DNA from: an uncultured Gammaproteobacteria bacterium
GTDB taxonomy: Bacteria > Pseudomonadota > Gammaproteobacteria > SZUA-229
Direction: 5' to 3'
DNA: 64,000 nt
Assembly: GCA_937998645.1 (NCBI GenBank)
Contig: CALLCZ010000052.1
Coordinates: 2,724 to 66,723, forward strand
Position 1 is the first letter of the stretch. The number at the start of each line of letters is the position of its first letter. A model generated the notes under the pieces. The model worked only from the letters and a program-made list of their open reading frames with translations. It ran no database searches and was not told where the DNA came from. Position numbers and translations under genes: made by a program. Shown here piece by piece: positions 33,738 to 51,242 of the stretch.

Positions 33738-34910
33738 ATGCGGCTTAATGGTTCAACGCCTTACTGGCGTCTCTCCAGCTTTTACTTCTTCTATTTCGCA
33801 TCGCTGGGTGCACTGATACCGTACTGGAGCCTGTACCTCAAGTCGCTTGATTACAGTGCGCAGTCAATCGGCATATTGATGGCGATTATTCCTGCGACCA
33901 AGATAGTTGCGCCTTATTTGTGGGGCTGGCTGGCAGACCACACCCGGCACCCGATCGCAATCATCCGGCTGGCAAATCTGCTCGCCGTGGTGACATTCGC
34001 CGGCGTGTTCGTCGATACCGGTTTTATCTGGCTGTCGCTGGTTTTGCTCGCTTTCAGTTTTTTCTGGAATTCATCCTTGCCCCTGTTCGAGGCCATGACA
34101 CTGAATCATCTCGGTGATGATGAACACAGGTACAGCGCTGTCAGACTGTGGGGCTCTCTCGGTTTCATTATGATGGTTGTGCTTCTCGGCAAGTATTTCG
34201 ATATGACCAGCATCGACCGGGCGCCGCTCGTTATTGTTATTCTGCTTGCAGGCATATTACTGGTCAGCCTGATCGTGCCTGAACGCCTGAGTACGCATCA
34301 TGAAGGCCAGGTGCCAATCATTCACGTGATACGCGAACCCGTGGTACTGGCATTTCTGCTGGTTTGTTTTCTGATGCTGATGAGCCACGGACCGTATTAC
34401 ACCTTCTACAGTATCTACCTGGAAAGCCATGGTTACAGTCGAGGTATGATCGGCCTGCTGTGGGCGATCGGCGTGATGGCTGAAGTCATCGTGTTCCTGA
34501 TGATGCACAGATTGCTGCTGACAATCGACATGCGTAAATTACTTCTGATAACTTTTCTGTTAACGGCGTTGCGCTGGGTATTGATCGGTTTTTTTGTTGA
34601 TAATCTTTCCGTGCTGTTCTTTGCACAGCTGTTTCACGCATTCAGCTTTGGTGTTTTTCATGCGGTCAGTATATCGCTGGTACATCGCTTCTTTACCGGC
34701 CGGCACCAGGGGCGGGGCCAGGCATTATATGCAAGTCTGAGTTTCGGTGCAGGCGGAGCGGCGGGCAGTTTACTCAGCGGCCTGTTGTGGGACCGGATAG
34801 ATCATGCCTGGTTGTTCAGTCTTGCGGCTGCTGTTGCGATCATTGCCTTTCTCATCGTATGGCGCTTTATTCACTTCACGACTCATCGGAATACTTCATC
34901 AGCTGGCTGA
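33738..34910 (+). CDS. MFS-family transporter (12 TM)
   Basis: 390 aa, highly hydrophobic with 12 predicted TM segments. Major-facilitator-like loop motifs. Substrate unknown. Confidence 0.8.
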   Translation: MRLNGSTPYWRLSSFYFFYFASLGALIPYWSLYLKSLDYSAQSIGILMAIIPATKIVAPYLWGWLADHTRHPIAIIRLANLLAVVTFAGVFVDTGFIWLSLVLLAFSFFWNSSLPLFEAMTLNHLGDDEHRYSAVRLWGSLGFIMMVVLLGKYFDMTSIDRAPLVIVILLAGILLVSLIVPERLSTHHEGQVPIIHVIREPVVLAFLLVCFLMLMSHGPYYTFYSIYLESHGYSRGMIGLLWAIGVMAEVIVFLMMHRLLLTIDMRKLLLITFLLTALRWVLIGFFVDNLSVLFFAQLFHAFSFGVFHAVSISLVHRFFTGRHQGRGQALYASLSFGAGGAAGSLLSGLLWDRIDHAWLFSLAAAVAIIAFLIVWRFIHFTTHRNTSSAG

Positions 34911-35751
34911 TCATTGCGTTGGCTGCGTTAGATTTCGTTCTCATACTATGAACAACGATGCCAAGCCGGCGTGTTGTACGTGCATGTTTGATATCGAGTG
35001 CAGCCAGGGTTTTGTCGAGCATTGATGATGGCAGCATGCTCCAGCCCAGCCCCGCCTGTACCATGGCTTTTATGGTTTCCAGGTAATGGGTTTCAAGCAG
35101 CGTGCTGACCGATTCATCAAGACCCAGTGCAGCATCGATCAGCTTGCGGGTGTAAGTGCCCCTGGATGGCAGAATGGCGTCATGATTGAGCAGCTGTTTA
35201 ATGCTTAACCTGCTTTTTGCGGCCAGTGGGTGCTGTTTTGAAACCACGACACATAAGGGATCATTCCATACGGGCTTCATTTCGAGACGGTCATTATCCT
35301 CGCCGGGCAAGGTGATGACAGCCAGTTCAATATCGCCGTTGATGATCTGCTGACAGGCTTCTTCCGAATCCATAAAGCTCAGCTTCAACTCAACATCCGG
35401 GTAGTTTTTAGAAAACGCGCGTAGCACCGGCGGCAATCGATGCAGACCGATATGATGGCTGGTGGCGAGGTTCAGAATCCCGCTGGTGGTCTCGCGCAGA
35501 TTGCTGATGATGCGCCGGCTCTCGGTGATTTCGGCAATAATGCGCCTGCAACTGGGGAGCAGGGCGTGGCCGGCTTCTGTCAGGCGAACGCTTTTACCGA
35601 TGCGGTCGAACAGGGTAATGCCGAGCGAATGCTCGAGCGCCTGTATCCGCTTGCTGACGGCAGGCTGTGTCAGGAACAGGGTATCTGCCGCGCGGGAGAA
35701 CGAGCCCGTATCGCTGACGGTGAGAAATGCCTGTATGCCCTGGATGTCCAT
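34876..35751 (-). CDS. LysR-family transcriptional regulator, divergent from leuCD
   Basis: 291 aa. N-terminal wHTH (FSRAADTLFLTQPAVSKRIQALE). LysR substrate-binding domain. Divergent from leuC, the position occupied by a LysR regulator in Pseudomonas-type leu loci. Confidence 0.85.
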   Translation of the reverse strand: MDIQGIQAFLTVSDTGSFSRAADTLFLTQPAVSKRIQALEHSLGITLFDRIGKSVRLTEAGHALLPSCRRIIAEITESRRIISNLRETTSGILNLATSHHIGLHRLPPVLRAFSKNYPDVELKLSFMDSEEACQQIINGDIELAVITLPGEDNDRLEMKPVWNDPLCVVVSKQHPLAAKSRLSIKQLLNHDAILPSRGTYTRKLIDAALGLDESVSTLLETHYLETIKAMVQAGLGWSMLPSSMLDKTLAALDIKHARTTRRLGIVVHSMRTKSNAANAMISQLMKYSDES

Positions 35752-35895
35752 GTTCTTTAGGCCCTGTTGTCCGGGTGAATGTCGTATAACAAATAGTAAT
35801 AGTTTATATGAAAATAATGAATTTGTATTATGTGATATTCTGAATTAGTCTTGCTTCTTATTGACGCCAACAGAACTAACGGAAACGTATAAACA

Positions 35896-37311
35896 ATGAC
35901 TGCCAGAACGCTTTACGACAAGCTGTGGGATGACCATGTGGTGCGGACTGAGGACGATGGCACCGCATTACTTTATATCGACCGTCACCTTGTGCACGAA
36001 GTCACATCGCCCCAGGCTTTTGAGGGCTTGCGCATTGCAGGCCGCAAACCATGGCGAACTGACTCTGTACTCGCGGTGCCTGATCATAATGTACCGACAA
36101 CGGATCGCAGTGCGGGTATAGAAGACCCGGTGGCGCGCCTGCAGGTCAAGACCCTGGACAATAACTGCAGCGAATTCGGATTGACCGAGTTTGATATGTC
36201 TGACATACGCCAGGGTATCGTGCATGTTATCGGGCCTGAGCAGGGTGCGACATTGCCGGGCATGACCGTTGTTTGCGGTGATTCCCATACTTCCACCCAC
36301 GGTGCTTTCGGTGCGCTGGCATTCGGTATCGGCACCTCCGAGGTCGAGCATGTGCTTGCTACGCAGTGCCTGCTGCAGAAGAAAAGTAAAAACATGCTGG
36401 TATCCGTCGATGGTCATGTGAATGAAGGCATCACCGCAAAAGATATTGTGCTGGCGATCATCGGTGAAATCGGTACCGCCGGCGGCACCGGGTTTGCCAT
36501 CGAGTTTGGCGGCGATGCGATACGTGCGCTCAGCATGGAAGGGCGCATGACCGTGTGCAACATGGCGATCGAAGCGGGTGCACGTGCCGGCATGGTTGGT
36601 GTTGATGCCACAACGATTGATTACGTAAACAACAGGCCGTATGCGCCGCAGGGCGAGATGCGTGATCGTGCGATTGAAAACTGGCAGCAGCTGCACTCGG
36701 ATAGCGACGCCGTTTTCGACAAAGTCGTGCATATTGATGCGGCCAGCATCAGGCCGCAGGTGACCTGGGGTACTTCCCCGGAGATGGTTGTGGCTATAGA
36801 TGCAGGGGTACCGGACCCTGATACGGTGAAAGACCGTGTTAAAGCGGATGGCATGCGCAAGGCGCTCGCCTACATGGGGCTGGAGGCGGGCATGCCGATC
36901 AACCGCATTGCTGTCGACAAAGTCTTTATCGGCTCATGCACCAATTCGCGTATCGAGGACTTGCGGGCTGCCGCAAAAGTAGCGCAGGGCAGAAAAGTCG
37001 CGAATAACATCAAGCTCGCCATGGTCGTGCCGGGTTCGGGGCTGGTAAAACAACAGGCCGAAAAGGAAGGGCTCGACAAGGTGTTCCTCGAGGCCGGGTT
37101 TGAATGGCGTGAACCGGGTTGCTCGATGTGCCTGGCGATGAATGCGGACAGGCTGGAACCGGGCGAACGTTGCGCATCAACGTCTAACAGGAATTTTGAA
37201 GGTCGACAGGGCCAGGGCGGGCGCACGCACCTGGTGAGCCCGGCGATGGCGGCCGCGGCTGCAGTAGCGGGCCATTTTGTCGATGTTAATGACTTGATGT
37301 CACACAACTGA
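35896..37311 (+). CDS. leuC: 3-isopropylmalate dehydratase large subunit
   Basis: 471 aa. Aconitase-family Fe-S ligands ([34 protein letters not shown]). Confidence 0.95.
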
Positions 37312-37321
37312 GAGAAAAGAA

Positions 37322-37954
37322 ATGCAGGCATTTACCAGACATAGTGGAATCGTGGCGCCTCTCGACCGGCCTAATGTCGATACTGACGCGATTATTCCAA
37401 AACAGTATCTGAAATCGATTAAACGCAGCGGTTTTGGTCCGAATGCATTCGATGACTGGCGCTACCTGGATGAAGGCGGACCGGACATCGATGATTCAAC
37501 ACGCCGCATTAATCCGGAATTCATTCTCAATCAGCAGCCGTATGACAGGGCGACGGTCCTGCTTGCGCGGGAAAATTTCGGCTGCGGCTCATCACGTGAG
37601 CATGCGGTGTGGGCACTGACAGACTTCGGTTTTCGTGCCGTTATTGCCCCGGGTTTCGCTGATATATTTTTTAATAACAGTTTCAAGAACGGTTTGCTGC
37701 CTATCACCCTTGACAGCGCTGTTGTCGATAGTCTTTTCGGCAAGGTTCAACAAAACAGGGGTATTGAATTTACGATTGATCTCGAGTCACAGACTGTAAC
37801 TGCGGGTGAAGATGTTTATGCTTTTGAGATTGATGAATTCAAAAAATATTGTATGTTGAACGGGCTTGATGATATCGGCCTGACTTTACAGCATGCGGAT
37901 CAGATCACAGCGTACGAACAGGAAAGAAAACAGAAGTTACCATGGTTGTTCTGA
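37322..37954 (+). CDS. leuD: 3-isopropylmalate dehydratase small subunit
   Basis: 210 aa. Aconitase swivel domain. Immediately follows leuC. Confidence 0.95.
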
Positions 37955-38056
37955 TGGTGTGTAAAAAATAATAAGGCTCTTCACTGAATCGAGCAGGTAA
38001 ACTTCAGATGTTAGCCACAGCGGTCACGGAGAACACAGAGGTATTTAGTTTTGTAG

Positions 38057-38116
38057 GAGCGGCTTCAGCCGCGAACAATCTGTCAGATCGCGATGAATTC
38101 GCGGCTGAAGCCGCTA
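38057..38116. other. Strong hairpin (18-bp perfect stem, 22-nt loop) downstream of leuD
   Basis: agcggcttcagccgcgaa-caatctgtcagatcgcgatgaa-ttcgcggctgaagccgct. It lies inside the 80-codon ORF 38008-38250, which is probably spurious. Confidence 0.5.
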
Positions 38117-38246
38117 CGTTTACTGCGGACCAGATCAAAACAACAAAACAAGCATTTGTCTCTGTGCCTCTGTGGCAAAATTATTTATCGTATCAACCCA
38201 CCAGGTCTGGTGAAGACACAGTAATAAAAAATTCTCAGGTGCATAA

Positions 38247-38810
38247 ATGAACTATTCGAAACCCGGATTACACATTGTCCGGCAAATTGTTTTGCTGTCA
38301 GCAGTATTGGTGGCAACAGCATGCTCGAACAAGGCATCAACATTTGTACCCGCAGCGCAGGATGCAGACAAGGGTTCGGTTGTTTACATCTATCGCCCAT
38401 CCAGTTCAACAAACTTCATGATGTCGCCGAAAGTGGTCATCGACGGCAATGAAAAATTCAAGATCGGAAGCGGTGATTATCGCTATGTATACCTTCAATC
38501 CGGCAGGCACACGCTAGGCCTGAACCCGACCGATCAGTACATGACGGATGCTGCGCTGGAGCTGACAGTCGAAACAGATGAAAGCTATTACCTGCGTGTT
38601 AACACCTCACTGAAGTTCGAGCCGGACAGTATGAATACACGCAGGTTCTGGTTTGAACAGGTCACAGAAAAACAGGCGCTCGAGGAAATCGGCGATACCG
38701 GGTATGCGGGGCCGATACAGCAGACCATAGCAGACCCGGCCGAAGAGGCTGGAACCGGTGATGGTTTTTCCGTCGATAAAACACGGGACCCGTTTTCGGG
38801 TAAAGATTAA
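38247..38810 (+). CDS. Putative lipoprotein (unknown function)
   Basis: 187 aa. Lipobox LVATAC after a signal peptide (MNYSKPGLHIVRQIVLLSAVLVATACS). Lies between leuD and leuB. Confidence 0.6.
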   Translation: MNYSKPGLHIVRQIVLLSAVLVATACSNKASTFVPAAQDADKGSVVYIYRPSSSTNFMMSPKVVIDGNEKFKIGSGDYRYVYLQSGRHTLGLNPTDQYMTDAALELTVETDESYYLRVNTSLKFEPDSMNTRRFWFEQVTEKQALEEIGDTGYAGPIQQTIADPAEEAGTGDGFSVDKTRDPFSGKD

Positions 38811-38832
38811 ATACCAGAAACTTGCAGTTTTT

Positions 38833-39030
38833 GTTTCTCGCCAAGGCGCAAAGAGCGCAAAGGTGTTTTGGGTAAGAGCAGATTAAACATTTAAGTTCTC
38901 TGCGGCCTCAGCGACTCTGCGAGAAAAAAATAAATATAATCTCGCGGAGGCGCAGGGGTCGCAGAGGTATCTGGAATAAGAACAAACCAGACATAGAGGT
39001 TCTTGGCGGCCTTGGCGCCTTTGCGAGAGT
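38833..39030. repeat. Two tandem intergenic inverted-repeat elements (copies 3a and 3b) in the lipoprotein-leuB gap
   Basis: 3a: ttctcgccaaggcgcaaagagcgcaaagg ... cctcagcgactctgcgagaa. 3b: ctcgcggaggcgcaggggtcgcagagg ... cttggcggccttggcgcctttgcgagag. Same architecture and the same (a/c)aggcgc / gcgca(a/g)agg word family as the other copies. Confidence 0.7.
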
Positions 39031-39210
39031 AAATTTCTAACGCATGATTACAGGACCAGGTCTGATCGTTCGAACGAAATATAAGCGTTTGAGTTGATAT
39101 GAGATATTGATTTTTCCGCTGTTACAGCTCAGCGCAAATGACGGGAATAATAGCGTATAATTCCGCCAGCCGTTTTCAGCGGTTTTATGCATAAATCATC
39201 AGGTACATGT

Positions 39211-40287
39211 ATGAGTCAAAAGATTGCAGTCTTGCCGGGAGACGGCATCGGCATCGAGATCGTTGCTGAAGCTGCCAGGGTGCTGAACCATCTCAAGAAT
39301 GACGGTCTCGATATAGAAATGATTGAGGCCCCGGTCGGAGGCGCCGGTTATGATGCTGCCGGCAAGCCGTTACCTGATGAAACCCTGGCCCTGGTAAAAG
39401 AGTCTGATGCAATTCTGCTGGGTGCCGTAGGTGGTCCGCAGTATGAAGCTTTGCCGCGCGAGCTGCGCCCCGAAAGAGGCCTGCTTGGCCTGCGTTCCGA
39501 ACTGGGCCTGTTTGCTAACTTGCGCCCTGCAATCCTCTACCCGCAACTTGCAGACGCGTCTTCACTCAAGCCGGATGTCGTAGCCGGGCTGGATATCATG
39601 ATCGTGCGCGAACTCACCGGCGGTATTTATTTTGGCGAACCGCGTGGTATACGCGAGAAAGCCAACGGTGAACGCGAAGGCTTCAATACCCTGGTTTACA
39701 GTGAATCCGAAGTTGACCGTATCGCCCGGGTTGCTTTTGACATCGCAATGAAGCGTGGCAAGCGACTGTGCTCGGTGGACAAGGCGAATGTGCTGGAAGT
39801 TTCGGAACTCTGGCGCGAGGTGGTGATCAAGGCCGGTAGCGATTATCCCCAGGTCGAGCTCAGTCATATGTATGTTGATAACGCAGCAATGCAGCTGGTG
39901 AAGTGGCCCAAACAGTTTGATGTCATGGTAACAAAGAACATGTTTGGTGATATTCTTTCAGATGCTGCGGCCATGCTCACGGGTTCGATTGGTATGTTGC
40001 CTTCGGCTTCGCTGGACGCGAACAGCAAGGGCATGTACGAGCCAATTCACGGCTCAGCGCCCGATATTGCCGGCAAGGGAGTGGCAAACCCGCTGGCTAC
40101 AATTTTATCGGTGGCTATGATGCTGCGTTACAGCCTGGATTATGCGACACTGGCTGATAAAATCGAACATGCTGTTGGCAGTGTCCTTGATAAGGGGCTG
40201 CGCACGCCGGATATTATGGCCGAGGGTTGCAGGGAAGTGGGTACAGTTGAAATGGGTGAGGCGGTTCTGGGTGAGTTGTCTGCCTGA
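39211..40287 (+). CDS. leuB: 3-isopropylmalate dehydrogenase
   Basis: Starts [18 protein letters not shown] (24 nt inside the longest ORF). Isocitrate/isopropylmalate dehydrogenase signatures ([15 protein letters not shown]...[23 protein letters not shown]). Confidence 0.95.
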
Positions 40288-40310
40288 ACGATGAGATTAA
40301 ACAAAAGAGT

Positions 40311-41333
40311 ATGAGCAAGACATTCGATGTAGCTGTTGTAGGTGCCACCGGCGCAGTGGGTGAAACCATGCTGTCGATTCTGGCAGAGCGCAAGTTTCCT
40401 GTGGGCGAAGTCTATGCACTGGCTAGCAGTCGTTCGGCCGGAAAAAGAGTAGAGTTCGGCAGCAAGCTGCTGACTGTGCAGGATCTGGCCGATTTTGATT
40501 TTTCCAAAGTACAGATTGGTTTGTTCTCTGCCGGCGCATCAATTTCAGAAGTGTATGCACCCAAAGCGGCTGCGGCGGGCTGCGTGGTTGTCGATAACAC
40601 CTCGCGGTTTCGCTATGACGATGACATACCGCTGGTAGTGCCTGAAGTGAATCCGCATGCCATTGCTGATTACAGGACACGCGGTATCATTGCCAACCCC
40701 AATTGCTCAACAATACAGATGCTGGTTGCACTCAAGCCGATCAGGGATGCAGTTGGTATTGAACGTATTAATGTGGCGACCTATCAGGCGGTCTCGGGTA
40801 CCGGCAAGGAAGCTATCGAGGAACTGGCGGGTCAAACGGCTCACCTGCTCAATGCCAAACCAATTAAAACCGAAGTGTATCCGAAGCAGATTGCATTCAA
40901 TGTGCTGCCGCAAATCGACGTCTTTCTCGACAATGGCTATACCAAGGAAGAAATGAAAATGGTGTGGGAGACCCGCAAGATTTTCGAGGATGACGCCATC
41001 CAGGTGAATCCAACAGCCGTGCGTGTACCGGTTTTTTATGGGCATTCCGAAGCCGTGCATATCGAAACGGGTGAAAAGATCACTGCCGAGAAAGCACGTG
41101 AATTGCTGTCTGCGGCTGATGGCGTCGTTGTGCTCGATGATCGCAACGACGGCGGTTACCCGACTGCGGTGACTGAAGGCGCCAATAATGATCCTGTTTA
41201 TGTGGGCCGTATTCGTGAGGATATTTCACATGAAAAAGGGCTGGATCTTTGGGTCGTGGCCGATAACGTGCGTAAAGGGGCAGCATTAAATAGCGTGCAA
41301 ATTGCAGAAATTTTGATAAAAGAGTATTTATAA
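40311..41333 (+). CDS. asd: Aspartate-semialdehyde dehydrogenase
   Basis: 340 aa. Rossmann N-terminus (VAVVGATGAVGETML). Catalytic Cys context (NPNCSTIQMLVAL). Confidence 0.95.
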   Translation: MSKTFDVAVVGATGAVGETMLSILAERKFPVGEVYALASSRSAGKRVEFGSKLLTVQDLADFDFSKVQIGLFSAGASISEVYAPKAAAAGCVVVDNTSRFRYDDDIPLVVPEVNPHAIADYRTRGIIANPNCSTIQMLVALKPIRDAVGIERINVATYQAVSGTGKEAIEELAGQTAHLLNAKPIKTEVYPKQIAFNVLPQIDVFLDNGYTKEEMKMVWETRKIFEDDAIQVNPTAVRVPVFYGHSEAVHIETGEKITAEKARELLSAADGVVVLDDRNDGGYPTAVTEGANNDPVYVGRIREDISHEKGLDLWVVADNVRKGAALNSVQIAEILIKEYL

Positions 41334-41474
41334 CCTATATTTAACCGTAAATACTTGAAGTATATTATCAAAGGGTTCCCGAAGGGGTCGGGGACTTGAT
41401 TACTACAATAACAAAAACAGGGGACTGCAGCAGGGCACAAGACCTTGCATTGACAGTAATGAGAGGGGAAACCA

Positions 41475-44465
41475 GTGCGTAAAATCATCTTTGCCTTGGC
41501 GTTTGGGGCTTTACTTCTACCTGATTACGGCTTCACCCTGGGCTTGGGTGAAATCGAGGTTACTACAGCGCTAAACCAGGAACTGAATGCAGAAATTCAG
41601 CTGCTTTCGGCTGCACCGGAAGATGTAGAAACACTTATTGTAAAGCTTGCTTCTCGCGAAGAATTCATCCGGGCCGGTATCGATCGTCCCTACATGCTCA
41701 ACAGTCTGAAGTTCTCCGCCGAGACGCGCGATGGCGTGCCCTTTGTCAGGGTGACTTCTGACAAGCCGGTTCGTGAGCCCTTCCTGAGTTTCCTGGTCGA
41801 AGTCGATTGGCCCAGAGGTCACATGATGCGTGAATACACCATCCTGCTTGATCCCCCGGTCTTCCTCGAACAGCAGGCACCTGCACAGCAGGAGCAGTTG
41901 AGACCCGCCGCGATGGAATCATCGCCACCTGCCGCCAGGGGTGTGTCCGAGCCGCAGAGCAGTAGCGGATTCAGACCCGCTGTAATGGGAGCGACGGCCA
42001 CCACCCCGTCAGCCGCTGCAGCACCCGCTCCAGAAGCCGGCGTGCAAACGACACAGGCCCAGGCGCCTTACCAGTCAGCACCAGCATATACACAGACTTA
42101 CTATCAGTCCCCTGGCGGATACCGGGTACAACAGGGCGACACGCTCTGGAGCCTGGCTGATGCAATGCGGCCAGACCAGTCGGTCTCCATAGAACAAATG
42201 ATGTTGGCAATGCTCCGGAGTAATCCGGAGGCTTTCATTAACGAGAACGTAAATGGCCTCAAGCGGGGCTACATTCTTCGCATTCCTGATGGTGATGACA
42301 TCGTTTCTATAAACCAGGATGAAGCCGTTGCCATGGTTCGCGAGCAAAATGCATTGTGGCGTGAGTACTATCAGGCTGTTGCCGGTGGAGAGACTGCTTC
42401 ATCGATGGATAGAGAAGGCGAAGGTAGCGCAGGCGCCGGTATGGACGAAAGCGGCGACTCGCGCCTGGAAATCGTGGCTGCAGGTAGCGGCACTTCCGCA
42501 GCAGGTGCAAAAGACCCGACGCAGATGTCATCCAGCGAACTGCGCGCTGAACTCGCTCTCGCCCGTGAAGCGCTGGAAACGGAGCGTGTTGAAAAAGAAG
42601 AATTAAATCAACGCGTGGTATCACTCGAAGGGCAGGTCGACAGGATGAAATCCCTGTTGACACTGGAAGATTCTGATCTGGCTGAAATGCAACAGGTGGC
42701 TACGCCTGTAGAAGGTGAAGCGATAACTGACGCCGGTGCCTCTGAAGAAGCCATGTTCGAAGAACTCGACGAAATGGTGATTGATGAAACAGCAGTGGCT
42801 GGCGATGCTGTAGTCGAGGAAATCACAGAAACTGAAGAAGTTGTTATCGATGAATCTGCCGTTGAGGAAGGCGGCGAGCAAGAAGTGTTCATCGATGAAG
42901 AGCAAGCTGAAATGGTTGAAGAGCTTGCCGGGCAGTCTGAAGCATCAACTGAAGATTTTGCAGTAAGCCAGAATACCGAGCCGGCATTCATGCAACAGCG
43001 GAAACAGGACCCGTTAACGATGTTGCTGAATAACCCTGTTCTGCTGGCGGCGGCTGGCGGCGGCCTGCTGCTGGTGTTGTTGTTGATCGCGCTGATTATG
43101 AAGCGCCGCAAGTCCGGTGATGAAGAATTCGCTGTTGCCGGCAATCTTGACGATATCGACAACATTACTGACCAGGTTGACGACCGCGATGTCATACGTG
43201 AAGTCGAAGATGTGCAGGTAGAACAGGAGATGGCCGAGGCTGAAGCCGTGGCAGAGACAGTTTCGACTGGACTTGATGCTGACACGGTTGCTATCCAGAC
43301 TTCAACTGAAGACACGGTGGCTGCAACAGATGAAGCCGAGACGGAGAGTGAGCCGCGTGATGACGTCATCGCAGAGGCTGATGTCTATCTTGCTTATGGA
43401 ATTTATCAGCAGGCTGAAGAGCTGCTTCAAAATGCCATCAAGGATGACCCGGATAAAGACAGCTATCGTGTGAAGCTGGCCGAGACATATCTTGCCGGTA
43501 AAAACTCCGATGGATTTGTCGAACTGGCTACGGAAATGAACCAGCGCCGCGGGGGTGAAGATACACCCGCATGGCAGAGAATTGTTGCTATCGGTCAGGA
43601 GCTTGTACCGGGTCATGCCTTGATCTCGGCTGCATCAGCTGGCGACCTGCTTGTGGATGATGAACCGGCTTCGGAATCACCTGAACCCATAGATTTTGAT
43701 CAGGGTTCTGAAGCAGATCAGCAAGCCGAAGCCCCGGCGCTTGATCTGGGTTTTGATGAATCTGAAGCTGGAATCGCAGAAGCGCCGGAAGAGGCGCTTG
43801 CGTCAGCTGAAAGTGTTGAATTCGACCTGTCTGAGACGGGGGCAGAAGCTGCGACAGAAAGTGAAGAAGGTATAGAGTTTGGCCTGGATGAAACGCAAGC
43901 CTTTGAGGCAGGGCAGACTACGCAAGAATTCTCGCTGGATATAGAAGCTTCCGAACTGGGTATTGAGGATGAAGGCTCAGGAGAAGCTGATGCCGGTGAG
44001 TTCGATCTCGATCTCAGTGCCGAAGCAGAAGAAGCGCTTGCTGCAGATGATGAAACTGAAGATACAGGCATTACGCTGGATGATGTTAATGAAGCCAGCC
44101 TTGACTTTGATACCGGTGATTCGAAGGCAGCGGAGCTGGATATCGAGGAGTCACAGGATGAATCAGGCGCTGTGTTTGATTTATCCGAAACCTCAATGGA
44201 AGAGGCCGTCGTTGAAATGGTCACCGAGCCGGAGACTGCACAGCCTGAAAGCAGGCCTGCGTTTAGTTCAGAATCGATGGATGATGATCTTGACCTGTCT
44301 GATCTGGATGATGTTGACGAAGTCAGCACCAAGCTTGATTTAGCCAAGGCCTATCTTGATATGGGTGATGCAGACGGTACCCGTAGCATCCTTGATGAAG
44401 TGATGACAGAAGGCAATGATGACCAGAAGAAAGAAGCCGATGATCTGCTCAGGCAGCTTGGATAG
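41475..44465 (+). CDS. fimV: FimV-like peptidoglycan-binding protein (LysM domain, TM segment, highly acidic region, C-terminal TPR/FimV motif)
   Basis: 996 aa, probably GTG start. Signal peptide. LysM (YRVQQGDTLWSLA). Single TM (LLAAAGGGLLLVLLLIALIM). Long Asp/Glu-rich C-terminal half. Conserved FimV C-terminal helix (LDLAKAYLDMGDADGTRSILDEV). Sits in the asd-fimV-truA synteny known from Pseudomonas. Confidence 0.8.
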   Translation: MRKIIFALAFGALLLPDYGFTLGLGEIEVTTALNQELNAEIQLLSAAPEDVETLIVKLASREEFIRAGIDRPYMLNSLKFSAETRDGVPFVRVTSDKPVREPFLSFLVEVDWPRGHMMREYTILLDPPVFLEQQAPAQQEQLRPAAMESSPPAARGVSEPQSSSGFRPAVMGATATTPSAAAAPAPEAGVQTTQAQAPYQSAPAYTQTYYQSPGGYRVQQGDTLWSLADAMRPDQSVSIEQMMLAMLRSNPEAFINENVNGLKRGYILRIPDGDDIVSINQDEAVAMVREQNALWREYYQAVAGGETASSMDREGEGSAGAGMDESGDSRLEIVAAGSGTSAAGAKDPTQMSSSELRAELALAREALETERVEKEELNQRVVSLEGQVDRMKSLLTLEDSDLAEMQQVATPVEGEAITDAGASEEAMFEELDEMVIDETAVAGDAVVEEITETEEVVIDESAVEEGGEQEVFIDEEQAEMVEELAGQSEASTEDFAVSQNTEPAFMQQRKQDPLTMLLNNPVLLAAAGGGLLLVLLLIALIMKRRKSGDEEFAVAGNLDDIDNITDQVDDRDVIREVEDVQVEQEMAEAEAVAETVSTGLDADTVAIQTSTEDTVAATDEAETESEPRDDVIAEADVYLAYGIYQQAEELLQNAIKDDPDKDSYRVKLAETYLAGKNSDGFVELATEMNQRRGGEDTPAWQRIVAIGQELVPGHALISAASAGDLLVDDEPASESPEPIDFDQGSEADQQAEAPALDLGFDESEAGIAEAPEEALASAESVEFDLSETGAEAATESEEGIEFGLDETQAFEAGQTTQEFSLDIEASELGIEDEGSGEADAGEFDLDLSAEAEEALAADDETEDTGITLDDVNEASLDFDTGDSKAAELDIEESQDESGAVFDLSETSMEEAVVEMVTEPETAQPESRPAFSSESMDDDLDLSDLDDVDEVSTKLDLAKAYLDMGDADGTRSILDEVMTEGNDDQKKEADDLLRQLG

Positions 44466-44624
44466 TCGTCAAGATTATATAAATCACAAGTATTGAAATC
44501 AGAACGGCACCAGGGATACCCGGTGCCGTTTTTGTTTATGCGGGTTTCGCATTTCGATCATTTAGTTTCGCAATTCATCTGTGATATCACTGCAACTATT
44601 TATTATCACGTGTCACTCAATATT

Positions 44625-44870
44625 TGGTTTCGCCTTGCTGGCGAGTTACTTTTCTTTGCATGCCCAAAGAAAAGTAACCAAAAGAAAAGGCATCCCGGGC
44701 GCTCGTGCTACGCATACCCTCAGCCATCTTCACTGCCAACGGGTCGTCTTGACTCGCCGTCCGGGCTCGACAAGACTCGATTGACCGTCCCTGGTCAATC
44801 GACCCTACCAGCGAAGCTGTCTTCGGCGAGCTTGACGGGAACAGGCAGTCTCCCCACGAGGTTGTCTGAA
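44625..44870 (+). repeat. Structured ~245-bp intergenic element, copy A (fimV-truA gap)
   Basis: Shares the conserved blocks tggtttcgcc, ggcgagttacttttc, aaaagtaaccaaaagaa, cttgactcgccgtccgggctcgaca(a/g)gact and gtccct with the reverse complement of 45000-45240. Contains a perfect hairpin gttacttttctttg/caaagaaaagtaac at 44645-44678. Confidence 0.75.
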
Positions 44871-44999
44871 ACATTAAGTTTTGGTAGGAATATTCGATAT
44901 GGACGTTAGATTCAAGGTAAGTAGATTACATAAACTTAGGTAACACTTTAGTCCAAGGACATAGGTAACAGATTAAATCATCAGCAGAGTTGTTTTCAG

Positions 45000-45240
45000 T
45001 AAGCTTGACGTGCTTTATTTCTCCCGTGAAGTTTGCCGAGGCATTCGGCTTTGGTAGGGAAAATCCGACAGGGACGTCGGATTTAGTCCTGTCGAGCCCG
45101 GACGGCGAGTCAGGACGGCCCGTAGGCAAAGCCGAATGCCTCGGGAACCCGAAGGGCAAACGTTTCGGGGCGGCGTTCTTTTGGTTACTTTTCTGTCGCT
45201 GTTGACAGAAAAGTAACTCGCCCAACAGGGCGAAACCAGA
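45000..45240 (-). repeat. Structured ~245-bp intergenic element, copy B (inverted relative to copy A)
   Basis: Reverse complement aligns block by block with 44625-44870. The hairpin gttacttttctgtc/gacagaaaagtaac (45184-45217) carries compensatory changes relative to copy A. Confidence 0.75.
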
Positions 45241-45388
45241 TGCTTGGTTACACAATAAATGAATCTGTAAACACAACAACCAATAGTCTGGAGTTTCACA
45301 GCGTGATACTCCAGACTATGCGGGTTATGCATGTCGCTCACGTTCGAGCGGCAGCGCTGTAGTTTGTTTAACAGCGGAATCCAGCCAG

Positions 45389-46210
45389 ATGAATGAAATA
45401 GAAAAGCCACAAAGCAGGCGCATTGCCCTGGGTGTCGAGTACGACGGCAGCCGCTATTGCGGCTGGCAGATGCAATCACACGGTACGCGCACGGTACAGG
45501 ATGAAATAGAGAAGGCCCTTTCTATCGTGGCAGACCACCCGGTGCAGGTTGTTTGTGCAGGGCGTACCGATACCGGTGTTCATGCTACCGGGCAGGTGGT
45601 TCATTTTGATACTGATGCCGAGAGAAAATTAAAGGCCTGGGTGATGGGCGTCAATACGCATTTGCCCGATGATGTCTGTGTACACTGGTCAAAACAGGTC
45701 GATGCCGGTTTCAGCGCACGCTTCAGCGCGAACATGCGCAGCTACCGTTATGTGATCCAGCAACGTGCTGCAAGGCCTGCGCTGTACAGTCACCGTGTGA
45801 CCTGGGTGTACGATGACCTGAACACGCGTGCGATGCATGAAGCGGCGCAGGCGCTGCTTGGTGAAAATGACTTTTCAGCATTTCGCTCATCCGCCTGCCA
45901 GGCCGAGCATGCGATGCGATTCATCAAGTCAATCGCGATCTCGGCCGAAAATTCGTTCGTTTATATCGATATTCAGGCCAATGCCTTTCTGCACCACATG
46001 GTGCGTAACATTGTCGGGTCATTGCTCAAAGTGGGCACAGGTGAACAGCCGGTAACATGGGTGGCAGAATTGCTGGCATTGAAAGACCGAACCCGGGCGG
46101 GTCCTACAGCACCGGCGCAGGGTTTGTACCTGGTTGCTGTACAATATCCACCTGAATACGATTTGCCGGTATCCGGCATGGTGCCTCGCTTCGGTGGAGG
46201 AAACGGGTAG
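45389..46210 (+). CDS. truA: tRNA pseudouridine(38-40) synthase
   Basis: 273 aa. Catalytic Asp motif (VCAGRTDTGVHATGQVVHFD). TruA family. Confidence 0.9.
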   Translation: MNEIEKPQSRRIALGVEYDGSRYCGWQMQSHGTRTVQDEIEKALSIVADHPVQVVCAGRTDTGVHATGQVVHFDTDAERKLKAWVMGVNTHLPDDVCVHWSKQVDAGFSARFSANMRSYRYVIQQRAARPALYSHRVTWVYDDLNTRAMHEAAQALLGENDFSAFRSSACQAEHAMRFIKSIAISAENSFVYIDIQANAFLHHMVRNIVGSLLKVGTGEQPVTWVAELLALKDRTRAGPTAPAQGLYLVAVQYPPEYDLPVSGMVPRFGGGNG

Positions 46211-46240
46211 ATATAAAATGATGAATTTCGGGATCATCCA

Positions 46241-46873
46241 TTGAAACAACGTACACGTGTTAAAATCTGTGGCATTACCCGCGCTGAGGATGCGCTTGCG
46301 GCAGCAGCAATGGGGGTCGATGCGATCGGGCTGGTGTTCTATGACAAAAGCCCACGCAACGTCGAAATTGAACAGGCCGCGGCAATTTGCCGGCAATTGC
46401 CAGCTTTCGTTACCACGGTGGCGCTGTTTCTGGATGCTGAAGAATCGCTGGTCAATGAAGTGCTGGTGCATGTGCCGATTGAAGTACTGCAGTTTCATGG
46501 GGCAGAGGATCCGGCCTATTGCGAGCGTTTTGCCAGGCCTTATATCAAGGCGCTGGGTATGGGATCTTTAAACCAGGAAGGTCTGATCAGCCTGTCAAAA
46601 TCATATAAAAGTGCACGGGGACTGCTGCTCGACAGCCATGAACCCGGTGCCGCAGGCGGAACCGGGGAGACGTTTGACTGGAACAATATTCCGCTGCTGA
46701 ACAAACCGGTCATCCTTGCGGGTGGCCTGACGGTAAGCAATGTTGCTGAAGCGATCAGTCGTGTACATCCATGGGCGATTGATGTCAGCAGCGGTGTGGA
46801 AGCAAAAAAAGGTATCAAGAGTGTCGATCTGATGTCGGCATTTATGCAAGAGGTTGAAAATGCCGACAGATAA
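46241..46873 (+). CDS. trpF: N-(5'-phosphoribosyl)anthranilate isomerase
   Basis: 210 aa. TIM-barrel PRAI signatures ([22 protein letters not shown]). Confidence 0.9.
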
Positions 46874-48086
46874 TACGAAACAGACAATTGATTACTCTGC
46901 AATGCCGGATGAACGAGGCCATTTTGGCATCTATGGCGGCCGCTTCGTTTCGGAAACGCTGATGCAGGCGCTGGATGAATTGCACGATGCCTATGAAAAA
47001 TTCAGCACCGACAAGGACTTCCAGGCGGAGTTTGATGCTGACCTGGCCTACTATGTCGGGCGCCCCAGCCCGCTGTATCACGCCGAGCGCCTGTCGAAAG
47101 AAACCGGTGGTGCGCAGATATTTCTCAAGCGCGAAGACCTCAATCACACCGGTGCACACAAGGTGAATAACACCATTGGCCAGGCGCTGCTGGCCAGGGC
47201 CATGGGTAAAAACCGGGTTATCGCTGAAACCGGCGCCGGCCAGCACGGTGTTGCTACAGCCACGGTAGCGGCGCGCTTTGGCATGGAATGCGTGGTCTAC
47301 ATGGGCGCCGAAGACATCGTGCGACAGGCGCCGAATGTGTACCGCATGAAACTGCTGGGTGCCGACGTTGTTCCGGTAAGCTCGGGGTCAAAAACACTGA
47401 AAGACGCGCTGAATGAAGCCATGCGTGACTGGGTGACCAATGTCGATAACACCTTCTACATTATCGGTACCGTAGCCGGGCCGCATCCGTATCCGCAAAT
47501 GGTCAGGGATTTCCAGTCAGTGATCGGCCGTGAAGCACGCAGCCAGATTCTCGAAATGACCGGGCGCCTGCCGGATGCACTGGTCGCCTGTGTCGGCGGC
47601 GGCTCCAATGCCATCGGTCTGTTTCATCCTTTCCTCGGTGATGAGTCTGTAGCCATGTACGGTGTCGAGGCGGCGGGTGATGGTCTCGAAACCGGTCACC
47701 ATGCGGCGCCATTATGCGCCGGTAAACCCGGGGTATTGCACGGCAACCGTACCTACCTGATGGAGGACGAGGGCGGGCAGATCATTGAAACGCATTCGGT
47801 CTCGGCCGGGCTGGACTACCCGGGTGTCGGACCCGAGCATTCATGGCTGAAGGACATTGGCCGGGTGAGTTACGGCGCAATTACCGATACCGAAGCGTTG
47901 CAGGCGTTTCATCAGCTGACGCGCATCGAGGGCATTATTCCGGCACTCGAGTCCAGCCATGCGATGGCCTATGGCGTCAAACTGGCGGCTGAAATGAGCC
48001 CGGAGCAGAGCATGATCATCAATCTTTCCGGGCGTGGCGACAAGGACATGAACACCATTGCCAAAATCGAGGGTATACAGTTGTGA
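46854..48086 (+). CDS. trpB: Tryptophan synthase beta chain
   Basis: 410 aa. PLP-Lys motif ([11 protein letters not shown]) and GGGSNAIG loop. Overlaps the trpF end by 20 nt. Confidence 0.95.
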
Positions 48087-48928
48087 GTCGTTTACAGGCA
48101 TGCTTTGCGCGTTTGCAGGCAGAAGATCGCAAGGCGTTGATTCCGTATATCATGACCGGTGACCCGCATCCGGAAGTGACCGTGCCGTTGATGCACGCCA
48201 TGGTCAAGGCCGGGGCGAATATCATCGAGCTGGGCGCGCCTTTCTCCGATCCGATGGCCGATGGTCCGGTGATCCAGGCTGCTGCCGAACGCGCGCTCGA
48301 GTTCCATATTACACTGCATGATGTATTCAAAGCGGTCACGGAGTTCCGCAGGCTCGATGATGTAACGCCGATTGTCATGATGGGCTATCTCAACCTGATT
48401 GAAGTCGCAGGCTACGAGGCTTTCGCCAGGCTTGCGTCTGAAGCCGGCATCGACGGGATTATCACCGTCGATATGCCACCCGAGGAAGCCCACGACTATA
48501 TTTCCGCGCTTAAAGGCGAGGGTCTGGACCCTGTATTCCTGATTGCGCCGACCAGCACGGATGAGCGCATAGCAAAAATTGGAGCGGTTGCCAGCGGATT
48601 TGTCTATTATGTATCACTCAAGGGCGTTACTGGAGCGGCCAATCTTGATGTCGATGACGTCCGGCAGAAAGTCGAGACCATACGCCAGCACATCGATATA
48701 CCGATTGGTGTTGGATTTGGCATCAGCGATGCGCAAACAGCGGCACGGGTTTCGGCCTGTTCTGATGCGGTTGTCGTTGGGAGTGCTATAGTTAAACGTA
48801 TGGCCGCACATCAACAGCACAATCCTGAACAGACTGGGCGGGTGATAAAAGATGTGTCCGAGCTGCTGGGATCCATGCGTGAAGCGATGGACGCAAATCC
48901 GGCGGAAGAAATAACAATAACGGCCTGA
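48083..48928 (+). CDS. trpA: Tryptophan synthase alpha chain
   Basis: 281 aa. Start overlaps the trpB stop (GTGA coupling). TrpA signatures ([20 protein letters not shown]). Confidence 0.9.
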
Positions 48929-48945
48929 AAACGGGGGTAGCGAAA

Positions 48946-49818
48946 ATGAGCTGGTTTGAAAAATTGATGCCTTCACGTATCCGTACTGAAGGCGGCACCA
49001 AGCGTGCCATACCTGAAGGCCTGTGGTCCAAGTGCACCGCCTGTAGTGCAGTGCTTTATCGTGCCGAGCTTGAGCGCAATCAGGATGTGTGTCCCAAGTG
49101 CAATCATCACATGCGTGTCTATGGTCGCCGGCGCCTGGATATATTTCTAGACGAGTCTCCACGCGAAGAAATTGCCAGTGAGTATGTACCGGTCGACAAG
49201 CTCAGGTTCAAAGACAGCAAGAAATACAAGGATCGTTTGATTCAGGCGCAAAAGAATACCGATGAAAAAGACGCGTTGATTGCATACAAGGGCAAGGTCA
49301 AGGGCGTTGATGTCGTTGCTGTTTCATTTGATTTCCGCTTCATGGGTGGCTCCATGGGTTCCGTAGTTGGCGAGAAATTCGTTCAGGCAGCCAACGTTTC
49401 ACTGGCCGAAAATATTCCACTGGTCTGCTTTTCGGCATCAGGTGGTGCGCGCATGCAGGAAGCGCTGTTTTCACTGATGCAAATGGCAAAAACCAGTGCG
49501 GTACTCGCGCGCATGGCGAGACAGCGGGTTCCGTTTATCTCCGTGCTTACCGATCCGACCATGGGTGGTGTATCGGCCAGCTTTGCCATGCTGGGCGATG
49601 TCAATATTGCCGAGCCCAGGGCCTTGATCGGTTTTGCGGGTCCACGGGTTATCGAACAGACGGTGCGTGAGAAATTACCGGAAGGTTTTCAGCGCAGCGA
49701 GTTTCTGCTTGAGCACGGCGCTGTCGATATGATTGTAGATCGGCGTGATCTGCGGGATCGCATATCAAGCCTGTTGCTGATGTTGATGAACAAGCCAGCT
49801 ATACAAGCAAGCCAATAA
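48946..49818 (+). CDS. accD: Acetyl-CoA carboxylase carboxyltransferase subunit beta
   Basis: 290 aa. N-terminal Zn-ribbon (CTACSAVLY...CPKCNHH). Carboxyltransferase core ([20 protein letters not shown]). Confidence 0.95.
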
Positions 49819-49964
49819 GCATCTTGTTATTACCCTTTTCGTGGTGATTATGTTGAACCATCAGCGTGTGTTTGTTGTATACCATATCGATCAGTAAAGG
49901 CCCTTCGACATGCTCCCTTCGACATGCTCAGGGTGAACGGATTTAATCCAGGATTCCACACGTA

Positions 49965-51242
49965 TTGCGCTTTAAGTCACTCGATGAATGGCTCTCCTGG
50001 CAGGAGAGTCTGAATCCCAAAGAAATTGATCTCGGACTGGAACGCGTTTCACGTGTTCTGCACAGGGCTGGTCACAATAATCATTTCGACTGTCCTTTAA
50101 TCACCGTTGCCGGCACCAATGGTAAAGGTTCAGTGGTTGCCTACATCGAGGCCATTGCCCTGGCCGGTGGCTATACAACCTGCACCTACACATCACCGCA
50201 TCTGCTGCGTTATAACGAACGCATTCGCATCAATGGCAGCGAAATCGATGATGAAAGCCTGTGTGCGGCGTTTGAGCGCATTGATCAGGCCAGGGGTGGG
50301 GAACAACTGACCTATTTCGAGTTCGGCACGCTGGCAGCCATAGATTTGTTCATGGCTGCCAGGCCGGATCTGGTTGTCATGGAGATCGGGCTTGGCGGGC
50401 GGCTCGACGCAGTGAATATAATGCAGCCGAGTGTCGCGGTTATCACCACTATAGCCATAGATCATACCGACTGGCTGGGGACAGACCGTGAGACCATCGG
50501 TGTGGAGAAAGCCGGTATATTAAGAGCGGGCTGTGCCGCGGTATGCGGCGATATCAACCCGCCGCAATCGGTAATAAACCATGCTGCAAAATCAGCAGTG
50601 AAGCTGAAGCTCATCGGCCATGACTTCCGGGTTGAGCCGCGGGCAGAGACATGGGCAGTGCGTGCGAATGACGGCAGCCTGGATGAGTTGCCATTACCTG
50701 CACTGGCGGGTGAGTTCCAGCTGGCTAATGCCGCAACAGCTATTATGGCGCTCAAATCACTTCATGACTTAACAACGAGCGTCGGTGCCATTAAACAGGG
50801 ACTGCGTGATGTGCGACTGCCGGGACGGTTTCAGATCATCTGGCAGCGGCCTGTTGTAATCGTTGATGTTGCCCATAATCTGCAGGCAGCCGAATCACTG
50901 GCATCGCAGCTGAAGGCGCATGATTGTGCAGGCCGGACTCGTGCTATTGTGGCGATGCTCGCGGATAAACCGGTTACAGATGTCATTAAAGCGGTTTCAG
51001 GCGAAATTGACGACTGGTACCCGGCGGGTCTCGAATCAGTGCCACGCGGTTTGTCGGCAGCACATATGGCAGACGCAGTTGAACGGCTGACATCTGATGT
51101 TAAACTCAGCGCTGCTTCAACGGTTGCCAGTGCATGTGAACAGGCGCTAGCAGCTGCGGCAGATAATGACCGCATAATTATCTTCGGTTCGTTTTACACA
51201 GTCGCACAAGCAATGCATTTTTTCGCACTTCAGAGTTTGTAA
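49965..51242 (+). CDS. folC: Bifunctional folylpolyglutamate synthase / dihydrofolate synthase
   Basis: 425 aa, TTG start. N-terminus aligns with E. coli FolC (W-L-S-x-x-E-x-L-x-x-K-x-I-D-L-G-L-E-R-V). P-loop VAGTNGKGS. Mur-ligase family. Confidence 0.9.
   Translation: MRFKSLDEWLSWQESLNPKEIDLGLERVSRVLHRAGHNNHFDCPLITVAGTNGKGSVVAYIEAIALAGGYTTCTYTSPHLLRYNERIRINGSEIDDESLCAAFERIDQARGGEQLTYFEFGTLAAIDLFMAARPDLVVMEIGLGGRLDAVNIMQPSVAVITTIAIDHTDWLGTDRETIGVEKAGILRAGCAAVCGDINPPQSVINHAAKSAVKLKLIGHDFRVEPRAETWAVRANDGSLDELPLPALAGEFQLANAATAIMALKSLHDLTTSVGAIKQGLRDVRLPGRFQIIWQRPVVIVDVAHNLQAAESLASQLKAHDCAGRTRAIVAMLADKPVTDVIKAVSGEIDDWYPAGLESVPRGLSAAHMADAVERLTSDVKLSAASTVASACEQALAAAADNDRIIIFGSFYTVAQAMHFFALQSL

Follow-up and report, generated by a model that had tools for sequence, protein, structure and literature searches.

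A head-to-head pair of structured TwoAYGGAY repeats with a conserved terminal module in the fimV–truA spacer of an uncultured gammaproteobacterium

Two inverted copies in the fimV–truA spacer

The stretch of 64,000 nt analyzed here (the window; contig CALLCZ010000052.1, positions 2,724 to 66,723, from an uncultured gammaproteobacterium of the lineage SZUA-229) is an ordinary piece of housekeeping chromosome, carrying parC/parE, leuCDB, asd, fimV, truA, trpF/B/A, and purF, and its 25 best NCBIfam families are housekeeping families. Between fimV (open reading frame, ORF, 41475–44465; FimV_N match, E 7.5e-40) and truA (45389–46210; PseudoU_synth_1 match in the product), a spacer of 923 nt contains a structured element in two diverged copies of opposite orientation; its core is the known Rfam family TwoAYGGAY (RF01731), and its outer end is a conserved module. 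Along the spacer, blastn aligns 44622–44840 with the reverse complement of 45022–45241 over 224 columns at 70.5% identity (E 1.5e-21), and the inverted-repeat arms measure 107 nt (73%), 47 nt (83%), and 32 nt (75%), bearing out the two inverted copies described in the initial annotation. Weaker similarity extends to approximately 44598 and 45260. The whole arm of copy A is located at 44598–44862, with the Rfam-matching strand being the minus strand, read right to left, and that of copy B at 45000–45260, with the plus strand matching. The approximately 137 nt between the arms (44863–44999) form an A+T-richer center with a 17-nt direct repeat (44934–44950 and 44959–44975). No further copy of the element is detected by blastn in the 64-kb window, where the pair stands alone. 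The ORFs overlapping the spacer have no Pfam match, as expected from the earlier remark that they are not protein-like; for the annotation of this genome, they are not genes, and the spacer owes its length to the inserted repeat pair.

Within each arm, the same set of local stems is formed by different sequences. Hairpin 1 (copy A, 44779–44800, minus strand; copy B, 45061–45084, plus strand) keeps its loop and has its stem replaced, with GATTGACC-GTCCCT-GGTCAATC in copy A versus AAATCCGAC-AGGGAC-GTCGGATTT, on the opposite strand, in copy B. The initial annotation had recognized this second hairpin with its different stems and its constant loop, but the loop it named GTCCCT reads AGGGAC in the sense orientation, that is, a GGA loop. 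Hairpin 2 (44746–44776, minus strand; 45086–45116, plus strand) has the loop CCGGAC, a tandem G.A (within UCGAGCC/GGCGAGU in copy A), and one compensated pair, GUCUUG/CAAGAC versus GUCCUG/CAGGAC. The closing stem P1 has a wholly different sequence in the two copies and is paired in both; in copy B it consists of 18–19 bp (45035–45053 with 45127–45144; inverted repeat of 21 nt, 95%), and in copy A it is shorter and interrupted. At the outer side, the perfect 14-bp hairpin reported earlier, with its compensatory stem changes, is found in each copy (44645–44678 and 45184–45217), with both bases exchanged in each of the three uppermost pairs (UUG/CAA versus GUC/GAC). Compensated elements are therefore more numerous than first listed, including P1, the pair in hairpin 2, and a loop-to-upstream pairing described below. 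As the stems of these hairpins differ between the arms, only selection on local folding within each arm explains them.

The sense strand of the copy B arm folds with −123.4 kcal/mol (z −8.1 versus shuffled sequences; complement, −113.3), and that of the copy A arm with −101.1 kcal/mol (z −3.3; complement, −91.6), the Rfam-matching strand being better by approximately 10 kcal/mol in both arms. A single strand covering both arms would form one long imperfect hairpin (−326.8 kcal/mol, z −14.7). The long cruciform or double-stranded RNA suggested earlier thus holds as a thermodynamic possibility, but the local stems need selection within each arm.

Both cores exceed the RF01731 gathering score of 43 bits, copy A (44739–44807, minus strand) with 44.2 bits and copy B (45022–45157, plus strand) with 59.3 bits over the full length of the model (positions 1–168). 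With the matching strands being minus for copy A and plus for copy B, the two units point away from each other and from the A+T-richer center. The loops on these strands, AGGGAC and CCGGAC in both arms, keep the GGA and the 3′ pyrimidine and deviate from strict AYGGAY at position 2 of hairpin 1 (G) and position 1 of hairpin 2 (C). Comparative genomics revealed TwoAYGGAY in gut metagenomes, Clostridia, and Gammaproteobacteria; in the available part of that description its function is unassigned and both long and short P1 stems are allowed (PMC2864571). Strong matches to CsrA sites were found in the family by RMfam, with a proposal of CsrA sequestration for which validation was then in progress, and the tandem G.A of the second hairpin was noted as a trait (PMC4333381). 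The Rfam clan of TwoAYGGAY is CL00106 (CsrB/RsmB). The arms in the window resemble the family in their two adjacent GGA-loop hairpins within P1, the tandem G.A, the gammaproteobacterial host, a P1 that can be very long, and the occurrence of several copies per genome, as in Psychromonas ingrahamii. They differ in the two loops, in the module, since the Rfam model and the available part of the published motif end at P1 and the module sits in the unannotated flank of the alignment, and in the head-to-head pairing, which is absent from the same part of the published description.

The terminal module

The 14-bp hairpin does not stand by itself but forms the core of a conserved module, in which a second helix is interleaved with it and a U-run makes a mirror repeat. 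In the RNA sense, the module consists of a segment of 5–7 nt (A), a pyrimidine run (UUCUUUU or UUUUCUUUU), a G, the stem-loop S2, a small GC hairpin, and AAACCA. The S2 stem is GUUAC-UUUUCU paired with AGAAAA-GUAAC in both arms, and its loop is complementary to segment A. In copy A (44630–44698, minus strand; 56.8 bits with the covariance model R1), the small GC hairpin is located at 44630–44644, S2 at 44645–44678, and the run at 44679–44689 (A-run on the plus strand, U-run on the minus strand), followed by GGCAT at 44689–44693, the complement of which, AUGCC, pairs with GGCAU of the S2 loop (44660–44664). In copy B (45169–45233, plus strand; 59.1 bits), GGCGGC at 45169–45174 pairs through G.U pairs with the S2 loop GCUGUU, and the U-run (45176–45182), S2 (45184–45217), and the small GC hairpin (45218–45233) follow. 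A search against Rfam gives a known family for the core of the element, but the module is covered by none; nothing reaches the gathering threshold for the module or for the Bacteroidota and Oscillospiraceae units (18 loci), and the E-value mode returns only noise.

Genomes, one per species, were scanned with the pattern TTTTGGTTACTTTT-N(8-30)-AAAAGTAAC, which fixes 23 bases, and the covariance model R1, built from the module alignment, was used to find diverged copies. Covariation was measured on 138 aligned copies, and because these sequences are related, the permutation tests overstate their independence. The general form is U-run, G, NNUAC-UUUU...AAAA-GUANN. In S2, 97.3% of the cells are paired, with 183 double-change cells versus 57 in shuffles, and the three pairs left free by the pattern occur as UA, CG, and GC in comparable numbers. 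Furthermore, copies found only by the covariance model covary in the lower stem, from GUUAC/GUAAC to AUUAC/GUAAU, CUUAC/GUAAG, UUUAC/GUAAA, GUGAC/GUCAC, GGCAC/GUGCC, and AAUAC/GUAUU; hence, the apparent invariance is partly an artifact of the search pattern, and only the U-run, the G, and UAC-UUUU...AAAA-GUA are truly constant.

The helix between the S2 loop and segment A is real. At least five Watson–Crick pairs at most 6 nt from the U-run are formed in 60 of the 138 copies, compared with 10.4 ± 2.8 (maximum 20) when loops are set against the flanks of other copies, and a second measure agrees. The paired sequences are diverse, including CUUGAU/AUCAAG, UCGCC/GGCGA, GGUGC/GCACC, UCUGC/GCAGA, and GGUGGGU/GCCCACC. 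Meanwhile, the U-run mirrors the 5′ pyrimidine strand of S2, e.g., UUUCUUUU ahead of CUUUUCUUUG/CAAAGAAAAG; the match continues for 1.63 positions past the fixed Us versus 0.60 ± 0.07 in permutations, and the position of the first C tracks between the run and the S2 strand. Such mirror symmetry would be expected if the run lay parallel to the purine strand of S2 with U.A-U and C+.G-C triples. On the strand with the U-run, the connector from the loop helix back to S2 has only 0–2 nt for a helix of 5–8 bp, and in the usual geometry of an H-type pseudoknot this is too short to cross such a helix. The complementary strand has the loop lengths of a textbook pseudoknot, but its third strand is purine-rich, and the counts of G.U versus A.C (48 versus 32) do not decide the strand of the module. 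The two helices may form in turn and not together.

The module also accompanies TwoAYGGAY in published data. In the examined part of the Weinberg alignment, seven TwoAYGGAY entries of P. ingrahamii stand beside seven exact module cores, and all five inspected entries of this genome continue 3′ of the motif, in the unannotated flank, into UUCUUUUGGUUACUUUUCU..AGAAAAGUAAC-ACGCCGUCAAGGGCGG or, in one of them, a diverged form. In the same part of the alignment, two P. ingrahamii entries (NC_008709.1, 3670439–3669875 and 1237421–1237983) have tandem units of approximately 110 nt 3′ of the module, each starting with (A)GU(A/C)AC-ACGCCGUCAGGGCGGAAGACCAACAA, which represents the terminal hairpin alone, the other parts of the module being absent. 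The small GC hairpin follows the module in Proteobacteria, directly after AAAAGUAAC in many proteobacterial and Oscillospiraceae copies, and the Bacteroidota copies are without it. A full-text literature search for the module sequence gives unrelated papers only, and the bacterial examples named in the available part of a 2026 review of RNA triple helices are riboswitches and group II introns only (PMC13541005). The module and the head-to-head architecture appear to be undescribed and to reach far beyond the known range of TwoAYGGAY.

Distribution, pairing, and history of the locus

At the family level, the element is not confined to this spot. Among the matches listed, the exact module pattern occurs in more than 120 genome blocks at the least, with unrelated arms, and the number expected by chance, by our own estimate, is 0.4 for even base composition and below approximately 10 for A+T-rich genomes. 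The hosts belong to the Gamma-, Beta-, Alpha-, and Deltaproteobacteria, Bacteroidota, Oscillospiraceae and other Clostridia, and also to the Fusobacteriota, Nitrospirota, and Lentisphaerota and, within the candidate phyla radiation (CPR), to the Peribacteria and Gracilibacteria. Many of the hosts are cultured, and isolates with the module include Parabacteroides, Tannerella, Mucilaginibacter, Pedobacter, Stenotrophomonas, Xanthomonas, Lysobacter, Dyella, Burkholderia, Acinetobacter, and Propionigenium. In Bacteroidota and CPR lineages, the module sits on arms other than TwoAYGGAY, and two Burkholderia species have 81 nt in common (module, GC hairpin, and CUAAUAGACCG) at 94–96% identity on unrelated arms, one of them with a palindromic element of approximately 770 bp. 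Judging from the two Burkholderia species, the module can be a separable cassette.

Several metagenome-assembled genomes (MAGs) of Oscillospiraceae contain 3–5 copies per 8 kb, whose similarity reaches at least 300 nt inward and 150–200 nt outward of the module. This similarity of at least 150–200 nt on both sides leads us to reject a retroposition-like origin, in which copies would be 5′-truncated and have the 3′ end in common. A Tannerella contig of 255 bp holds little besides the element. Three independent contigs of the window's own organism (L002, L003, and L004) and that of its nearest relative (L125) all start inside the copy B module; breaks of this kind are the behavior of assemblers at repeats and are counted as evidence of a repeat. 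The JGI contig L001 equals the window at 99.7% from 44650 on, and its first 68 nt are unrelated; the join, inside the 14-bp stem of copy A, is either a chimeric assembly at the repeat or a real variant junction.

Head-to-head pairs with modules at the outer ends are found with the covariance model at no fewer than 24 of approximately 100 loci, in Gamma-, Beta-, and Deltaproteobacteria, Bacteroidota, and Clostridia, and the arrangement recurs from Burkholderia to Parabacteroides and Oscillospiraceae. The pairs mostly span 420–660 nt, and their arms range from 91% identity down to no detectable similarity outside the module; the pair in the window, with 621 nt and arms 70% identical, is a typical example. 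Tandem arrays are few (L054, L064, L061, and L006). The only tail-to-tail (convergent) module pair seen lies in Xanthomonas sp. NCPPB 1128 (L081, 7045–7122 on the plus strand and 7247–7323 on the minus strand), where a GTAGGAGCGGCTTCAGCCGCGAC-type repetitive extragenic palindrome (REP) adjoins the first (minus-strand) module. Relative to the flanking genes, the four possible orientations occur at similar frequencies, and 150 neighboring proteins fall into 192 Pfam families without preferred neighbor genes. None of the 25 most frequent of these families is a transposase, a reverse transcriptase, or a REP-associated tyrosine transposase (RAYT).

Two other carriers were considered and rejected. 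On plasmids, a distant blastn with copy B yields only one 43-nt module match, on a Vescimonas chromid, which rules out a plasmid-borne element. On viral contigs, only 12 stretches match the module pattern, and at the inspected locus, L214, the match appears to be fortuitous, lying among tandem palindromes rich in A+T. L214 and L216 lie on one contig of 610 kb (IMG/VR UViG_2700988799_000001) with palindromes every 700 bp or so and the pattern at its maximum gap length; the inspected part of L214 has neither an upstream arm nor loop-to-flank pairing and seems unrelated to the family.

At the fimV–truA locus, the adjacency of the two genes is kept in 13 of the 15 closest truA-centered contigs checked, the contig of L125 starting inside the spacer. 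In the relatives measured, with at most 79% TruA identity, the spacer is approximately 65–450 nt long and without the element. Copy B is present only in L125 (TruA identity, 87%), where its position is unchanged, and the module model finds no other copy in 80 truA-centered contigs (350 kb). Between the window and L125, the module is identical at 47 of 50 positions, with one compensated S2 pair, and the next 40 nt are approximately 60% identical. On the best reading of these spacers, the pair is probably a recent gain in the line leading to this organism rather than a syntenic gene of long standing.

No clean target-site duplication was found around the pair, and the relatives are too diverged to give exact element boundaries; only a 24-nt imperfect direct repeat (20/24; 44537–44560 and 45317–45340, plus strand) surrounds it, set back approximately 40–55 nt from the arms, with a chance expectation of approximately 0.003 in a 1.5-kb region by our own rough estimate. 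On the left side, GTTTCGC occurs three times in direct orientation (44544–44555, 44565–44576, and 44627–44638), the third inside the terminal hairpin. The 24-nt repeat and the GTTTCGC copies could be what is left of former element ends, or they could mark a favored target. In L126 (79% TruA identity), a different palindromic repeat, CGTAGGGTGCGCCGTGCGCGCCCC...GCGCACAGCGCACCCTACGG, lies in the same spacer, at 870–950 of L126. The fimV–truA spacer is apparently a site where intergenic repeats settle.

Mobile repeat, regulatory RNA, or both

The spacer is tentatively read, at somewhat less than even confidence, as a head-to-head pair of an interspersed, non-coding repeat that folds as a single strand, inserted in this lineage specifically and possibly transcribed and CsrA-binding. 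Each unit would comprise a variable arm, here TwoAYGGAY with P1 and the two GGA-loop hairpins, and the conserved outer module, and the family would persist and spread as a repeat that has to fold when single-stranded, whether as DNA or as RNA. A need for single-stranded folding would explain the compensation of local stems in arms that otherwise diverge from each other. With outward transcription of the arms, two CsrA-type GGA hairpins would be displayed on each RNA. The mobility, the single-stranded intermediate, and any protein partner are inferred. Of the two possibilities offered in the initial annotation, structured non-coding RNA genes or elements like miniature inverted-repeat transposable elements (MITEs), both still stand.

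REPs and their inverted doublets (REPINs), as well as MITEs such as Correia and ERIC, are short, non-coding, intergenic, multi-copy elements with inverted doublets forming one long hairpin; their stems are kept by compensatory change, their presence at orthologous sites is patchy, and their families are lineage-specific. The element described here is likewise short, non-coding, intergenic, and, in other hosts, multi-copy, with an inverted doublet, compensated stems, and patchy presence at the orthologous site. Compared with REPINs and MITEs, however, its units are much longer (approximately 215–500 nt) and internally branched, its module is common to several phyla, no RAYT or transposase is among the 25 commonest neighbor families, and no clear target-site duplication was found. 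IS200/IS605 elements, which have a TTAC target and subterminal hairpins, integron attC sites, and invertons were considered and provisionally set aside: the ends of the element are inverted and not direct, they do not agree with the attC consensus, and solo units occur commonly.

Several observations weigh against the repeat reading. No mobilizing enzyme appears in the neighborhood survey above, the direct repeat around the pair is imperfect and lies at a distance from the arms, and the pair is the only occurrence in the 64-kb window. The strong conservation of the module relative to L125, next to a poorly conserved 40 nt, looks like constraint at the level of the host, and the invariance across phyla is partly produced by the 23 bases fixed in the pattern. 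In addition, folding favors the Rfam strand in 18 of 26 proteobacterial arms (average, 3.1 kcal/mol), and GGA is more frequent on it than TCC (109 versus 63), a bias that points to an RNA of the outward strand rather than to an element acting purely at the DNA level. Over all phyla, no strand asymmetry of folding energy is seen (55 of 117).

The proteobacterial bias is one of the points in favor of the main alternative, possible if rather unlikely, namely two divergent genes of CsrA/RsmA-sequestering small RNAs (sRNAs), in which the two GGA loops of a unit would bind one dimer and the module would protect or define the 3′ end. The membership in clan CL00106 and the CsrA-site matches with the sequestration proposal (PMC4333381) argue for such genes, together with an excess of GGA over TCC on the sense strand (6 versus 3 in arm B, 4 versus 1 in arm A) and the better folding of that strand in both arms. 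Hairpin 1, GACAGGGACGU, is also near the high-affinity CsrA site, for which the SELEX consensus is RUACARGGAUGU. Like CsrB, RsmY, and RsmZ, the element presents GGA motifs in hairpin loops and falls in the same clan; unlike them, it has only two loop sites per unit, is non-syntenic, behaves like a repeat, and shows no GacA/UvrY box, recognizable promoter, or terminator. The GacA/UvrY box TGTAAGN6CTTACA with up to three mismatches is absent from 34437–51238, and the 11 matches in the whole window compare with 18.4 expected by chance. A scan of 44400–45450 for the sigma-70 consensus only finds no sigma-70-like promoter, either in the center or elsewhere, and no intrinsic terminator is found on the outward strands of the scanned region. 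csrA is not found in the 64-kb window by a motif search that is itself uninformative. Against sRNA genes also stand the lack of synteny in relatives, the seven entries in the one genome of P. ingrahamii in the examined part of the alignment, and the same module on other arms in Bacteroidota and CPR lineages; Bacteroidota are not known to have CsrA. A literature search gave no experimental test of CsrA binding to TwoAYGGAY. RsmU of Xanthomonas, also considered, is an unrelated RNA derived from a 3′ untranslated region (UTR) and has no Rfam homolog.

It is conceivable, but rather doubtful, that the 14-bp hairpin marks an undescribed class of cross-phylum cassettes of approximately 70–80 nt, each made up of a U-run, a conserved turn, a long A/U stem, and an apical loop in a pseudoknot with the 5′ flank, with mirror symmetry of the triplex type. 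Such cassettes would be carried on different arms, characteristically in head-to-head pairs of approximately 0.5 kb, either as a new mobile or self-propagating element or as a new and widespread class of RNA whose members have a protein or ligand partner in common; TwoAYGGAY would then be only the gammaproteobacterial and clostridial type of arm. TwoAYGGAY has been an orphan motif since 2010, with CsrA sequestration as the sole functional idea in the literature found. To the published description, as far as it was available, and the Rfam model, this locus adds a terminal module, the behavior of an interspersed repeat gained in one lineage, and the head-to-head pairs. Should the module be a real cross-phylum fold, it would offer a handle for finding the whole family and its binder or mover, and it would help to decide between regulatory RNAs, mobile DNA, and both.

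A fold in which the module alone binds a ligand or protein, as an H-type pseudoknot with a U.A-U major-groove triplex and with the arms accessory, is improbable. In agreement with it, the two interleaved helices both covary, the run is parallel to the purine strand and matches it, with C facing G as well, and the short linker and the UAC/GUA core are conserved, but the 0–2-nt connector leaves the classical fit only to the opposite strand with its purine-rich third strand, the G.U and A.C counts leave the strand unsettled, and with no consistent downstream gene the module is not a riboswitch. The known triplex pseudoknots (SAM-II, SAM-V, preQ1-II, and ENE/MALAT1, as presented in the available part of PMC13541005) share with the module a pyrimidine run beside a purine strand and an interleaved helix. 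The module differs in lying outside 5′ UTRs, in lacking a ligand-related gene context, and in loop lengths that are sterically awkward on the U-run strand, its triplex being predicted from sequence symmetry only.

The pair is improbable as a transcriptional insulator, in which the GC hairpin and GUUACUUUUCU at each outer edge would terminate incoming transcription and the rest would be passive: terminator-like sites do occur (5 in the region versus 1.3 expected), on the inward-reading strands only and with one at each outer edge (44629–44655, plus strand, TTCGCCTTGCTGGCGAG then TTACTTTTCT; 45207–45234, minus strand, TTCGCCCTGTTGGGCGAG then TTACTTTTCT), each being the small GC hairpin followed by (G)UUACUUUUCU, the same edges in Burkholderia (L092) are much stronger with 9-bp stems including seven GC pairs, and the GC hairpin directly follows the module in many proteobacterial and Oscillospiraceae copies, but fimV already has its own terminator, no leftward transcription from truA into copy B is known, genes toward the outer end of the module are not commoner than those away from it (67 versus 60), the Bacteroidota copies are without the GC hairpin, and both the loop-to-upstream pairing and the conserved GGA loops are left unexplained. 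The fimV intrinsic terminator (44503–44537; AACGGCACCAGGGATACCCGGTGCCG then TTTTTGTTT) lies approximately 60 nt before the element, and fimV transcription probably stops before copy A.

Two further features lie near copies of the element. Approximately 70–90 nt upstream of the first hairpin, four Xanthomonadales-type loci (L019, L020, L043, and L112) share a short box, GCCTTTGA(T/C), which could be a promoter element or a protein-binding site and is absent from the center of the pair in the window. Between copy B and truA, a near-perfect hairpin of 17 bp, ATAGTCTGGAGTTTCAC/GTGATACTCCAGACTAT, is located at 45283–45319; it has no T-run and is kept in L125 (approximately 115–150).

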